NCBI GenBank assembly: GCA_001771185.1
Contig: METB01000001.1
Location: forward strand, 375,200 to 439,199
Length of the DNA stretch: 64,000 bases
From: a candidate division Kazan bacterium RIFCSPHIGHO2_01_FULL_44_14
Lineage (GTDB): Bacteria > Patescibacteriota > Kazan-3B-28
Direction of reading: 5' to 3'
Position 1 is the first letter of the stretch. Each line of letters begins with the position of its first letter. The translations under genes were made by a program, and so were the position numbers. Shown here piece by piece: positions 54,352 through 56,523 of the stretch. Below the pieces are notes generated by a model. It saw only the letters and a program-made list of their open reading frames with translations, ran no database searches and had not been told where the DNA came from.

Positions 54352-54464
54352 TGTAGTGTAGGGGTTGATAAACGGGTTTTTGGTGGGGTAAACAAGCAAC
54401 ACTGAGCGTCAATAGCCGAGCGAGCTATGTCGAGCTCGTGCGTAGCGCGAAGTTGTTGCGCAGT

Positions 54465-54554
54465 GGAGGCGTGGCCGAGTGGTTTATGGCGCTAGTCTCG
54501 AAAACTGGTTGGGGAGTAATCCCCTCGGAGGTTCAAATCCTCCCGCCTCCGCCA
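54465..54554 (+). tRNA. tRNA-Ser (anticodon CGA), type II with long variable arm, CCA encoded
   Basis: Acceptor stem GGAGGCG/CGCCTCC. Anticodon stem CTAGT/ACTGG with loop CTCGAAA. T-arm GGTTCAAATCC. Confidence 0.85.
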
Positions 54555-54609: not shown

Positions 54610-55095
54610 ATGGCAGACCCAAAGCAAGAAGTTGGCACTCTCCGATATGAATGGACTGCGCTTGAATTCCCTCGGGTGGAGCGGACTAGAGTTTGGTATT
54701 TGGTGGCTGGGTTAGTTGGGCTTGGATTGTTGGCGTATACCATATATACCAGGCAATGGGCGGGAACAGCTGTCGTGCTAATGATTGGGGTGGTAGTTTA
54801 TCTGATGGGGAGAGTTGTCCCAAGAACTTTTGTTCATCGGTTAACAAGCCGTGGGGTAGAAGTGGGAGATAAATTTTATCCGTACACAGAGTTGAGAGCG
54901 TTTTGGGTGATTAATACCTCTAACAGTCGGACATTAAATCTGATATCAGCTAAGAAATTTAGTTTGCTTTTAACTTTACAATTAGAAGGGGCTGATGTAG
55001 AAAAGGTAAGAGAAGTTTTGTTGGAGTTTTTGCCAGAAGAGCCCGGGCGAGGCGAAGATGTGATTGACCGGGTTGGCAGGTTCTTTCGGTTTTAA
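54610..55095 (+). CDS. Hypothetical membrane protein (two TM helices, bPH/DUF304-like)
   Basis: Start set at MADPKQ, preceded by a GGGG Shine-Dalgarno-like stretch. Two adjacent TM helices. Confidence 0.4.
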   Translation: MADPKQEVGTLRYEWTALEFPRVERTRVWYLVAGLVGLGLLAYTIYTRQWAGTAVVLMIGVVVYLMGRVVPRTFVHRLTSRGVEVGDKFYPYTELRAFWVINTSNSRTLNLISAKKFSLLLTLQLEGADVEKVREVLLEFLPEEPGRGEDVIDRVGRFFRF

Positions 55096-55174
55096 TTATT
55101 ATGCGCCCGCCTGCAACGCTATGCGTAGCATTGCGGGCTGGCCCGTAGCTCTGTGGGCTGGCAGGGGGTTAGGA

Positions 55175-55426
55175 GTGTATTACATCTATGTTTTATTTTC
55201 AAGTAAAGATACGCACTTCTATGTTGGTTATACGAAGGATTTAAGGAAACGGGTAGAAGTGCACAACGTCGATGCTGTGGACGCCACAAAGTCACGCCGA
55301 CCGTTAAAACTGGTGTATTATGAGGCATGCTTGTCGGAGAACGCGGCGTTGGTGCGAGAGAAGCAACTTAAAACAGGGTTTGGTAGAGCGTATTTAAAAA
55401 CAAGGATTAACATTATGCGCCCGTAG
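55175..55426 (+). CDS. GIY-YIG nuclease family protein (probable GTG start)
   Basis: (V)YYIYVLFSSKDTHFYVGYTKDLRKRVEVHN matches the GIY-YIG core. The track ORF extends upstream to 55064 but the domain starts here. Stop codon overlaps the tRNA-Arg 5' end. Confidence 0.5.
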   Translation: MYYIYVLFSSKDTHFYVGYTKDLRKRVEVHNVDAVDATKSRRPLKLVYYEACLSENAALVREKQLKTGFGRAYLKTRINIMRP

Positions 55427-55493
55427 CTCAGGGGATTAGAGCGCGTAGCTACGGACTACGAGGTCGGGGGTTCGAATCCCTCCGGGCGTACCA
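55417..55493 (+). tRNA. tRNA-Arg (anticodon ACG)
   Basis: GCGCCCGTAGCTCAGGGGATTAGAGCG... cloverleaf. Anticodon stem CGTAG/CTACG with loop CTACGGA. T-arm GGTTCGAATCC. CCA encoded. Confidence 0.85.
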
Positions 55494-55521
55494 CGTCAAT
55501 TTGGTGGATTGAAAATAAAAT

Positions 55522-55646
55522 GGGGCCCCCGAAATGTTCTAGTTCTGACGGATGGAGGAACGAGGATTTTGGGGAGAGGAAGAATGACGAGGCCTAAAAG
55601 CACCCCGGCAGGCCGGGATAGCGTGAAGCCGAGTCCATTCTGACGA
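55522..55646 (+). ncRNA. Conserved ~125-nt structured element directly upstream of tRNA-Ser(GCT), copy 1
   Basis: About 80% identical to 56247..56383. Contains a hairpin with compensatory substitutions (CCCCGGCaggGCCGGG here, CCCCGCCAT..ATGGCGGG in copy 2). Ends at the tRNA 5' end. Confidence 0.4.
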
Positions 55647-55736
55647 GGAGAGGTGGCTGAGTGGCCGAAAGCGACACACTGCTAACGTGTTATACCCGTA
55701 AGGGTATCGCGGGTTCGAATCCCGCCCTCTCCTCCA
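55647..55736 (+). tRNA. tRNA-Ser (anticodon GCT), type II
   Basis: Acceptor stem GGAGAGG/CCTCTCC. Anticodon loop CTGCTAA. Long variable arm. T-arm GGTTCGAATCC. CCA encoded. Confidence 0.8.
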
Positions 55737-55743
55737 GAATTTT

Positions 55744-56205
55744 ATGAAACCAGACCATCAGAAATTTTTGCAGGTGGCTATTACTGAAGCCCAAAAGGCC
55801 GGTGTCAAAAAAGAAGTGCCGATTGGTGCAGTGATTGTAGACGCAAATGGCAATATTATCGGGCGAGGCAGAAATCAGACCCACGCAAAGAAAGATGGGT
55901 TAGGACATGCAGAATTGGTAGCGTTACGGCAAGCCCAGAGAAAATTGGGTGATTGGCGGTTTCCCGGAGCGAAAATATATGTAACACTTGAGCCCTGTTT
56001 GATGTGCTTGGGGGCGATTGGGAATGCCAGGATTAAGGAAGTTTATTATGGGTTAGCCGACCCGTTGTTTGGGTCGATTGAGAGTAAACTAACAAATAAG
56101 CAGGTAAAGAAAATGTTCCCAAAGTTAGAATGTTTTAAACTTCCAGACGATGGGACGGTGGCTGGTCTAATGAAACAGTTTTTTCATGGCTTAAGAAAAC
56201 GGTAG
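55744..56205 (+). CDS. tadA: tRNA-specific adenosine deaminase
   Basis: HAELVAL...PCLMCLGAI motif (H-A-E plus PCxxC zinc site). About 150 aa. Confidence 0.85.
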   Translation: MKPDHQKFLQVAITEAQKAGVKKEVPIGAVIVDANGNIIGRGRNQTHAKKDGLGHAELVALRQAQRKLGDWRFPGAKIYVTLEPCLMCLGAIGNARIKEVYYGLADPLFGSIESKLTNKQVKKMFPKLECFKLPDDGTVAGLMKQFFHGLRKR

Positions 56206-56246
56206 GGTACAATAGAGGCGTTAGGCAGTTTAATATTTTTGATAAA

Positions 56247-56383
56247 CGGGGTCCCCGAAATGCTCTAGTCCCGACGAATGGAGGAACGAGGATTTTGGGG
56301 AGAGGAGAAATGACGAGACCCAAAAGCACCCCGCCATCTGTAAACAATGGCGGGATAGTGTAAAGTTGAGTCCATTTGGACGA
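56247..56383 (+). ncRNA. Conserved structured element upstream of tRNA-Ser(TGA), copy 2
   Basis: See copy 1. Same 5' block GGGGNCCCCGAAATG.TCTAGT.C.GACG.ATGGAGGAACGAGGATTTTGGGGAGAGGA and same 3' block GTCCATT.GGACGAGG. Confidence 0.4.
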
Positions 56384-56473
56384 GGAGGCGTGGCCGAGCG
56401 GTTTATGGCGCCAGTCTTGAAAACTGGTTGGGGAGCAATCCTCTCACAGGTTCGAATCCTGTCGCCTCCGCCA
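56384..56473 (+). tRNA. tRNA-Ser (anticodon TGA), type II, CCA encoded
   Basis: Acceptor stem GGAGGCG. Anticodon stem CCAGT/ACTGG with loop CTTGAAA. T-arm GGTTCGAATCC. Confidence 0.85.
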
Positions 56474-56492: not shown

Positions 56493-56523
56493 AAAAAGAA
56501 GCCCCAGAGGGGCTTCTTTTGAT
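56493..56523. terminator. Bidirectional rho-independent terminator
   Basis: GAAGCCCC agag GGGCTTC hairpin flanked by A-tract and T-tract (AAAAAAGAAGCCCCAGAGGGGCTTCTTTTGA). Confidence 0.6.

Follow-up and report, generated by a model that had tools for sequence, protein, structure and literature searches.

A structured repeat flush with tRNA genes and start codons in Patescibacteria, possibly a small mobile intergenic element

Two tRNA-Ser genes of a candidate division Kazan bacterium (RIFCSPHIGHO2_01_FULL_44_14, Patescibacteriota; contig METB01000001.1) are each preceded by a conserved sequence of about 125 nucleotides (nt) that ends exactly where the tRNA begins, and the question raised by this locus is what such an element is and how it came to sit there. 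The window analysed here, to which all positions refer, is a stretch of 64,000 nt (positions 375,200 to 439,199 of the contig, forward strand). An earlier note on this DNA had described the two copies and offered several readings, of which a mobile tRNA-associated module fits best with the data presented below, while a leader or regulator linked to tRNA-Ser and found only upstream of it does not. Our answer, a tentative one, is that the element belongs to an undescribed family of mobile or rapidly turning-over intergenic elements of the Patescibacteria (Candidate Phyla Radiation, CPR), with relatives in some gut-metagenome bacteria.

Pairwise alignment identified the two regions, by their long identical blocks, as copies of one element lying on the + strand (Table 1), as had been reported. 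A 26-nt block common to both (GGAGGAACGAGGATTTTGGGGAGAGG) occurs exactly twice in the window and in none of 100 shuffles. The limits first given for copy 1 stand, while the start of copy 2 moves from 56247 to 56248 (GGGG). Both copies stop at position -1 of a tRNA-Ser gene (GCT and TGA, respectively) as placed by ARAGORN, with which Rfam agrees, and the long-range pairing proposed earlier (CCCCGAAAU/AUUUUGGGG, here P1) is present in both. Each copy folds better than its shuffles, with z about -3.1 to -3.3. The inner hairpin, described as differing by fully compensating changes, does contain a G-C to C-G flip, but only one, together with three added pairs and a larger loop; its arms read CCCGG/CCGGG around the loop CAGG in copy 1 and CCCGCCAU/AUGGCGGG in copy 2, the 3' arm quoted previously (GCCGGG) being one G too long. 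Since the outer flanks and the tRNAs of the two copies are unlike each other, a recent segmental duplication including the tRNA is not the source of the pair.

The remaining tRNA-Ser gene of the window (CGA), which had been thought to lack the element, is in fact preceded by a decayed copy. Its P1 is internally deleted and collapsed to ACGGG-TTTTTGG-TGGGG, and its second domain is of the 'GCCGAGCGAGCT..GAGCTCGTGCGTA' type, as in the related loci L017 and L021 (L-numbers designate loci compared in this work). A filter-free covariance model search of the whole window found these three copies only, each at a tRNA gene. In the predicted fold of spacer, copy 1 and tRNA-Ser(GCT), both element hairpins and an intact cloverleaf appear as separate modules.

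Relatives were collected through homologues of tadA, the gene between copies 1 and 2, which led to syntenic Patescibacteria contigs, and through a metagenome scan that demanded an exact match to a pattern in the conserved first hairpin. Together these gave at least ca. 28 further distinct copies among the matches listed, so that the two copies first described do have homologs elsewhere. Their hosts are Patescibacteria contigs plus a few human-gut metagenome contigs; the latter have a Firmicutes-like gene content (SerRS, ParA/ParB, Noc, parS sites) and carry the element also as tandem and partial units. Comparison with Rfam 15 gave no match for the window element at gathering thresholds or at E<=10 on either strand, in keeping with the earlier view that it belongs to no known family, and diverse copies gave none either, with ribozymes, T-box, HEARO/omega RNA, 6S, SRP, tmRNA and RNase P among the models. 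The overlaps that did appear lie far below threshold and are ascribed to chance (sR21 C/D box, 16.8 of 45 bits; ylbH leader, 20.4 of 50 bits; rli47, in the second half of the L039 copy, 20.1 of 200 bits). A scan of species-representative genomes with the pattern GGAGGAACGAGGN{3,9}GGGAGAGG returned 13 loci, all chance matches by blastn, the pattern having been taken from a hairpin insert that only one subfamily has. Pattern scans of viral contigs gave no match, blastn of a gut copy against phages and plasmids found nothing, and no description of the element was found in the literature by topic or by exact sequence strings.

The family core measures ca. 110-135 nt and is accompanied by a short A/T-rich 5' extension. 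Read 5' to 3', it consists of GGGG-N, the first hairpin P1, an unpaired purine-rich linker ARAGGAG, a long irregular hairpin and a tail of 5-6 nt, YGACG(N). P1 (CCCCRAAAUG ... CAUUUUGGGG) has a UA bulge and an apex formed either by a GCGAAGC-type mini-hairpin or by a longer insert, as in the window copies; in the second hairpin, P2 is followed by sheared G.A pairs in tandem, by P3, which is short, by an internal loop (CCAAWAG / GUAAN) and by P4, with P5 as a hypervariable hairpin at the apex. Sequence conservation is strongest at both ends, namely 5' GGGG-N-CCCCRAAAUG...CAUUUUGGGG and 3' GACG(N).

Covariation was assessed on a MAFFT alignment of 21 distinct copies, in which standard pairs fill 92.9% of pair cells against 78.5% in shuffles and both sides have changed in 18 of the 27 pairs, a number that none of 500 shuffles reaches; the sequences are related, and these shuffle controls are not probabilities. 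All 12 pairs of P2/P3 covary, and sliding the partners lowers the paired cells to 37-49%. In P1 the outer CCCC/GGGG is invariant and the inner pairs covary, two copies having swapped AAAUG/CAUUU for AACCG/CGGUU or for a GC-rich helix. Single-sequence folds give the same two-hairpin shape (z -4.6 to -6.3). G.U pairs outnumber A.C (31 vs 8), one G.U being conserved in 16 of the 21 copies, and full-length covariance model matches are confined to one strand, so the strand as read is the one that folds, either as RNA or as single-stranded DNA. The selected RNA-like structure that the note had proposed from two copies is thus supported by comparison of the family, as a strand-specific one.

Several other interpretations of the sequence were dropped. 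A small open reading frame (ORF) behind the linker, which resembles a Shine-Dalgarno (SD) sequence, is not conserved: only some copies have an AUG after the linker, the frames and peptides are not the same from copy to copy, and the substitutions obey base pairing. Resemblance to box C/D or a kink-turn (K-turn) is seen in copy 1 only, and a T-box-like pairing of the loop UGGAGGA with the tRNA 3' end likewise fits copy 1 alone. Similarity to an rrn boxA-like antiterminator is weak and lies inside a helix. For a reverse-strand terminator function, terminator-like calls in the region are no commoner than in shuffles; one such call falls on the - strand at 56327-56357, the reverse complement of the copy 2 apical hairpin followed by CTTTTGGG.

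Copies occupy three main kinds of site. On the sense strand they stop 1 nt ahead of the +1 of tRNA genes for Ser (three genes), Lys(TTT) and Ala(CGC). In antisense orientation they start 0-3 nt past the encoded CCA of tRNA-Ser(CGA), Arg(ACG), Gly(TCC), Thr(CGT), Phe, Gly(GCC) and Cys, the sites at Phe, Gly(GCC) and Cys all lying in one tRNA array. Ahead of ORFs they fill the whole gap and stop 0-2 nt from the start codon of rpsL (after rpoC), of ftsA (after alaS) and of the gene after ftsA; here the second hairpin has the GGAG at its base and the AUG 5-7 nt past its other side, and there is no other SD. A few copies are found elsewhere (L027b, L055, gut contigs). Relative to local transcription the two orientations are about equally common: some half of the independent sites hold an antisense copy at a tRNA CCA end, and these antisense copies at tRNA operons have no downstream gene on the element's strand. 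Next to GACG(N), some 21 of 27 copies have a flank that starts with GG, TGG or ATGG. The limit on the 5' side is less sharp: in most copies an A/T-rich stretch of ca. 8-30 nt precedes GGGG (longer at L021a and L097B, only 3 nt at L053c3), often ending in a -10-like hexamer directly ahead of GGGG, such as the TAAAAT at the end of the stretch before copy 1, and left flanks share A/T richness only, with no common motif. The A/T-rich extension before copy 2 (...TTGATAAAC) is also present in the first-site copy.

The earlier suggestion of a tRNA-precursor leader holds in its physical sense, the window copies being the 5' leader or spacer of tRNA precursors; this position on the sense strand is shared by window copies 1-3, L017+, L021a/b, L056 and L069, and not by antisense or ORF-adjacent copies. 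A leader or regulator dedicated to tRNA-Ser is another matter. All three window copies precede tRNA-Ser genes, and the element might on that ground have been specific to them, or a recent local duplication of no wider significance. The note had asked whether related genomes carry it upstream of tRNA-Ser only, and they do not: other tRNAs, antisense CCA sites and start codons, together with the decayed third copy, make a dedicated tRNA-Ser leader or regulator unlikely. With copies beside eight other tRNA species and ORFs, more than 25 distinct homologs in other genomes, and different flanks and tRNAs at the two window copies, both the tRNA-Ser-specific and the trivial-duplication reading are, on the sequences compared, refuted.

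A -10-like TACAAT is conserved 6-11 nt before the +1 of the third tRNA-Ser gene (in map order, that of copy 2) in the element-free L014, L015, L017, L025 and L027, which suggests that these tRNA-Ser genes are transcribed with almost no 5' leader, so that copy 2 would sit between the start site and +1. At L055 (7840-8080) a copy lies between 18-nt direct repeats of a tRNA-Gly 3' end (TTCTCGTATCCCACTCCA); the downstream one, which folds into a minihelix with CCA at its end, follows a GGGGCCCC...GGGG fragment that resembles the start of another copy. An integrase attachment (att) scar was considered and dropped, a direct repeat of the tRNA 3' end being found in L055 only.

The precise 3' end could be the product of the element itself, if it were a ribozyme, self-cleaving or processing, whose cut after GACG-N made its own 3' end and so yielded mature tRNA 5' ends and leaderless mRNAs without RNase P. 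The end is indeed flush to tRNA +1 or AUG at no fewer than nine independent sites, conservation extends to the GACG tail, the tandem G.A pairs and the purines of the junction, and the architecture is ornate with covariation support. We nevertheless consider this highly improbable. No ribozyme family matches even at E<=10, few unpaired nucleotides are invariant, a conserved SD-like linker would be pointless if severed from the ORF, antisense copies at CCA ends would be unexplained, and RNase P is enough for the tRNA cases; the hammerhead-like CUGACGA is not conserved either (UCGACGA, UGGACGA, UAGACGA in other copies). Hammerhead, twister, hairpin and HDV-like ribozymes were accordingly dropped as specific candidates, no model matching and the core not being conserved. 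More improbable still is a guide-RNA scaffold of the omega-RNA/reRNA kind (IS200/IS605 TnpB systems), in which the flank after GACG(N) would guide a nuclease encoded elsewhere. Its scaffold-like size, its conserved structure with an abrupt fixed 3' sequence before a variable flank, its dispersed copies in both orientations and its lack of terminal inverted repeats (TIRs) and target-site duplications (TSDs) speak for this; yet no TnpB, IscB or Cas gene adjoins any copy, the 5' (left-end) flank lacks the conserved motif expected from IS200/IS605 insertion, the two hairpins are unlike each other, and HEARO and other Rfam models fail to match. Neither the ribozyme nor the guide scaffold has positive support.

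Comparison of relatives revealed filled and empty alleles at five orthologous sites. The third tRNA-Ser site is filled in the window and in L021-L024 and empty in L014 (tadA 92% identical), L018-L020, L015/L016, L017 and L025-L028. At the Arg|Ser(GCT) junction, L015/L016 have no insert (0-nt spacer), the window, L017 and L021 have one in sense, and L027, L047 and L129 have one in antisense. Between alaS and ftsA a copy is present in L053, L086 and L142, as opposed to intergenic regions of 4-9 nt without it in L140, L141 and L143/L144. One and the same tRNA has an antisense copy after it in L017 and a sense copy before it in L021. In filled/empty pairs the insert, made of A/T-rich extension and core, takes the place of 3-11 nt and stops exactly at the first base of the gene (for example, TAA-ACTATAGAT-ATG vs TAA-ACTAAAAGTGTTTAT-[element]-ATG), about 9-13 nt of A/T-rich sequence arriving together with the core. 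The element copies of L142 and L053 are 85% identical while their ftsA genes are 59% identical, and the nearer ftsA relatives L143 (75%) and L140 (71%) are without the element. Whole contigs also differ: the L017/L142 contig has it at three of the five sites examined and the L016/L143 contig at none of five. Three copies each are found in the window, in L053, in L097 and in the L017/L142 contig.

Recombination has also involved these copies. At L018 (2600-2770), tRNA-Ser #1, a 173-aa ORF, the GIY-YIG gene and tRNA-Arg are missing and a chimeric element copy is left in their place, its 5' half like copy 2 or the first-site copy and its 3' half like copy 1; as read from the sequence, this is a deletion by recombination between two element copies. 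In the window, the block made of the GIY-YIG ORF, tRNA-Arg, spacer, copy 1 and tRNA-Ser(GCT) (55064-55743) is 97-100% identical to L019/L020, compared with 83% for the adjacent tadA (55744-56205), which indicates a recent recombination or co-conversion tract with its end at the tadA start. Purifying selection had been considered for the 100% identity of copy 1 to L019/L020 and was rejected because the whole GIY-YIG-to-tRNA block is that similar.

Diverged multiple copies in both orientations, filled and empty alleles, genomes that have the element at several sites or at none, decayed and recombinant copies and conserved ends lead us to read it as a small mobile element, non-autonomous and lacking both inverted termini and target duplications, which occupies tiny gaps and is cut from tRNA precursors by RNase P. 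This seems to us the best of several uncertain readings. A trans-acting enzyme encoded outside the element would insert it into the very short intergenic gaps of compact genomes, with its GACG end placed beside gene edges rich in G (the 'GG' of tRNA +1, the 'TGG' complementary to CCA, or ATGG), and the folded strand, as single-stranded DNA or RNA, would be what the mobilising machinery recognises. Copies would persist because the harm done is small. In tRNA operons, as for the three window copies, the element would be transcribed as a leader or spacer, with RNase P cutting at tRNA +1; before ORFs, its SD-like linker, brought to 5-7 nt from the AUG by the second hairpin, may stand in for the displaced ribosome-binding or coupling signal, as suggested by geometry and by the essential genes that tolerate the insert. 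Hitch-hiking on recombination tracts around the neighbouring GIY-YIG gene may also contribute.

A number of observations weigh against mobility. By a crude motif check, no transposase, recombinase or reverse transcriptase adjoins any copy, a YxDD scan for the last having found none near the copies. TIRs are absent (when the first 35 nt were compared with the last 25 nt in reverse complement, the longest match was 3-7 nt, as in shuffles), and there is no consistent TSD, the single 7-nt match at copy 2 being within chance. No established transposition mechanism therefore fits, and mobility is read from distribution alone, within a census of sites that is small and biased because all relatives were found by one conserved pattern or by synteny; most contigs compared are short. 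Moreover, very distant hosts share a conserved first hairpin and conserved junction nucleotides, and flanking genes are far less conserved than the element, which also suits a host-selected RNA. The filling of alaS|ftsA in three lineages could equal ancient presence with repeated loss, and harmlessness alone leaves the exact antisense flushness to CCA ends unexplained. Inversion through an acceptor-stem inverted repeat was considered as the source of the antisense copies and dropped, the observed junction keeping discriminator and CCA.

Part of this would be accounted for if the element were a structured RNA useful to its host, a leader, spacer or released small RNA that would be transcribed together with tRNAs or ahead of growth-related genes (tRNAs, rpsL, ftsA). 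It could then provide stabilising or processing 'punctuation' or a structured module for ribosome binding, or act in trans as an RNA through its exposed GGGG/GGAG; RNase P would free the RNA from tRNA precursors, and copies would multiply by duplication and gene conversion, not transposition. Strong strand-specific conservation of structure, conserved junction nucleotides, element copies 85% identical where ftsA genes are 59% identical, the -10-like hexamers directly 5' of GGGG in many copies and the independent folding of element and tRNA all argue for such an RNA. So does its filling of the entire gap at essential genes with no other SD, whereby it must be compatible with, or provide for, translation of those genes. 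Set against this are close relatives without the element at every examined site, the half or so of independent sites that are antisense to the tRNA operon with no downstream gene on the element strand, the lack of a consistent gene association, and decayed and recombined copies, so that we regard a host RNA as rather unlikely.

The nature of the junctions raises one further alternative, an RNA-templated element resembling short interspersed elements (SINEs), whose RNA, with ...GACG at its 3' end, a reverse transcriptase encoded elsewhere would copy. Priming by the tRNA 3' OH would give the tRNA-CCA|antisense junctions, template switching off the 5' end of a tRNA or mRNA would give element|tRNA +1 or element|AUG, and the resulting chimera would then be fixed at the cognate gene. 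The junctions do coincide with mature RNA termini (tRNA +1, CCA end) that double-stranded DNA does not mark; the junction is precise on the 3' side, apart from 0-3 extra variable nucleotides, and variable on the 5' side; TIRs and TSDs are lacking; and the folded strand is the sense, RNA-like one. However, the crude check placed no reverse transcriptase near any copy, junctions at start codons within operons (ftsA|X) do not obviously match RNA ends, integration needs a second, unexplained junction, and a 'GG' target preference with selection is a simpler account of most junctions. To our knowledge no RNA-templated mechanism of this kind exists in bacteria, and we hold it to be improbable.

The coordinates of the window features are collected in Table 1.

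Table 1. Copies of the element, their parts and the adjoining tRNA genes in the 64,000-nt window
Feature	Position	Strand	Remarks
Element copy 1, core 125 nt	55522-55646	+	covariance model 89.3 bits
Copy 1, 5' tail and P1	55527-55574 (P1)	+	5' tail GGGGC; P1 CCCCGAAAU / AUUUUGGGG, inner hairpin inside
Copy 1, exposed linker	55575-55582	+	AGAGGAAG
Copy 1, second hairpin domain	55582-55640	+	P2 GAAUGAC/GUCCAUUC, tandem G.A, P3, P4, apical P5 55604-55617
Copy 1, 3' tail	last base 55646	+	CUGACGA; last base one base ahead of tRNA-Ser(GCT)
A/T-rich stretch, 28 nt	55494-55521	+	CGTCAATTTGGTGGATTGAAAATAAAAT; from tRNA-Arg CCA to copy 1 core
Element copy 2, 136 nt	56248-56383	+	covariance model 85.5 bits
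Copy 2, P1, linker and P2	56253-56300; 56301-56307; 56308-56377	+	linker AGAGGAG; P2 AAAUGAC/GUCCAUUU
Copy 2, P5 and 3' tail	56330-56354 (P5)	+	P5 longer; tail GGACGA stops one base ahead of tRNA-Ser(TGA)
tadA stop to copy 2	56206-56247	+	-10-like TACAAT 56208-56213, then A/T-rich extension ...TTGATAAAC
Degenerate third copy	54385-54464	+	directly 5' of tRNA-Ser(CGA); nhmmer 2e-9; covariance model 35 bits, E about 1e-8
tRNA-Ser(GCT)	55647-55736	+	adjoins copy 1
tRNA-Ser(TGA)	56384-56473	+	adjoins copy 2; terminator-like hairpin downstream at 56498-56516
tRNA-Ser(CGA)	54465-54554	+	adjoins degenerate third copy
tRNA-Arg(ACG)	55417-55493	+	in L015/L016 joined directly to tRNA-Ser(GCT), which represents the copy-1 site when empty

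The tRNA cluster shows further peculiarities. The tadA start lies 7 nt past the CCA of tRNA-Ser(GCT) (55737-55746) with no recognisable SD between, which illustrates the scarcity of intergenic space in this genome. The anticodons of tRNA-Ser #1 and #3 (54465-54554, 56384-56473) run CGA...TGA in the window and TGA...CGA in L015-L017 and L021; the two genes are very similar in the window, which suggests anticodon switching or gene conversion. A small GIY-YIG ORF (55178-55426; Pfam 3.5e-14) lies directly before tRNA-Arg, and upstream of it, at 55103-55175, is a degenerate duplicate of the tRNA-Arg 5' half (GCGCCCG...CCCGTAGCTC...GGGGGTTAGGAG) broken by two inserts. In L117 (760-1123) a homologous GIY-YIG ORF lies within tRNA-Lys, the tRNA 5' half being duplicated on both sides, and by this arrangement the GIY-YIG ORFs look like homing-type insertions into tRNA genes. 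The same tRNA cluster in L017 also holds a 92-aa HNH endonuclease ORF (1672-1950; Pfam 2.5e-7), which overlaps tRNA-Ser(TGA) at its start.

Most of the metagenome pattern matches listed proved unrelated to the element and consisted of G4T4 telomere-like repeats or of a gut 'CCCCATTTTGGGG' repeat. An unrelated conserved family beginning TATAATAGGTTTTGCATTGAAAGGTCCCCCAAAATGGGGTTTTGGGG... was found on short contigs at L029, L034, L035 and at least about 60 further metagenome loci, with G4T4 telomere-like repeats beside a conserved sequence of about 150 nt; it may represent ciliate nanochromosome ends. L032, L036, L054, L068 and other human-gut contigs carry another unrelated repeat, three TTGCCCCATTTTGGGG(C/T)A copies ca. 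40 nt apart upstream of TATATAGCC, whose layout resembles iterated protein-binding sites.

CPR genomes are tiny, tightly packed and thought to be poor in mobile elements. A repeat that invades gaps of 0-10 nt with an apparent ribosome-binding signal of its own would show how selfish DNA survives in compact genomes, would account for puzzling long tRNA 'leaders' in CPR genomes and would serve as a marker for recent recombination between uncultured strains. The lack of TIRs and TSDs, the single folded strand and the junctions at RNA ends would point to a route of insertion so far undescribed among the small repeats of bacteria. The family is absent from Rfam, with relatives in Firmicutes-like gut contigs, and is worth a model. 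Were it a host RNA instead, it would constitute a new widespread class of CPR non-coding RNA, and were the SINE-like route true, a prokaryotic retroelement in tRNA operons, written in at transcript termini.

Comparison with known systems places the element as follows. It differs from integron attC sites, which form one hairpin with extrahelical bases between the inverse core RYYYAAC and the core GTTRRRY, in that its ends GGGG-N-CCCC and GACG(N) do not pair with each other. The hammerhead core is CUGANGA ... GAAA around three stems; copy 1 has CUGACGA, other copies have UGGACGA, UCGACGA or UAGACGA, and cmscan gives no match. Eukaryotic SINE and long interspersed element (LINE) retroposition and the Mauriceville retroplasmid share with it a precise 3' junction, a variable 5' side, junctions at RNA termini and the involvement of tRNA, yet the element has neither poly(A) nor TSD nor an identified reverse transcriptase partner, and we know of nothing like such retroposition described in bacteria. 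The hairpin-bridged ('split') ribosome-binding site of phage T4 gene 38 likewise has GGAG at a hairpin base whose other side is 5-7 nt from the AUG; in our case the hairpin is about 60 nt long and part of a repeat, and ribosome binding is a predicted role.

As for leaders and spacers of tRNAs removed by RNase P, the window copies resemble them in lying between a promoter or upstream tRNA and tRNA +1. Ordinary tRNA leaders, however, are short and unconserved, whereas the element is also found antisense after tRNAs and ahead of ORFs. The 3' end of MALAT1 RNA is made by RNase P at a downstream tRNA-like structure (mascRNA), and as the window copies fold independently of their tRNA, RNase P cleavage would release them with a defined 3' end.

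IS200/IS605-derived palindrome-associated transposable elements (PATEs) and omega/reRNAs resemble the element in having no TIRs or TSDs, subterminal hairpins on one strand, small size and variable orientation. IS200/IS605-type elements insert 3' of a conserved target of 4-5 nt at their left end, and their left and right hairpins resemble each other; in our element it is the right end (GACG) that is precise and linked to context, the left flank has no target motif, P1 and P2 are unrelated, and no partner gene (TnpA/TnpB) adjoins the copies.

REP/BIME/REPIN and ERIC-type repeats of proteobacteria have been reviewed (PMC2229807 and PMC3184786), and the first of these papers also deals with MITEs (miniature transposable elements with inverted repeats). 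Like the former, the element is small, non-coding, structured and multi-copy, lies in either orientation in intergenic or intercistronic gaps and varies in presence between strains; co-transcription with neighbouring genes and mobilisation in trans would be further points of likeness. It is unlike REP and REPIN in its two dissimilar hairpins, its strand-specific fold with a conserved G.U, its SD-like linker, its fixed and unlike ends and its gene-flush junctions. REPs are GC-rich palindromes of 20-40 nt and REPINs inverted REP pairs that form one long hairpin and are RAYT-linked; the architecture of two unlike hairpins with a linker departs from this, and no RAYT was found on the contig fragments compared. 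With MITEs (Correia/CREE, RUP, Nezha), which can carry outward promoter or ribosome-binding-site-like signals and RNA-processing sites, it shares a size of about 100-150 bp, non-autonomy and insertion polymorphism, but MITEs are defined by TIRs and TSDs and the element showed neither when tested. Its dispersed copies and insertion polymorphism at orthologous sites are those of a small mobile repeat, and by analogy it would work most like the REP/ERIC-type or MITE-type small mobile intergenic repeats. Since it differs from MITEs in TIR and TSD, from REP/REPIN in architecture and from IS200/IS605 elements at the left end, and matches no Rfam family, it would represent a further form among the small mobile intergenic repeats.

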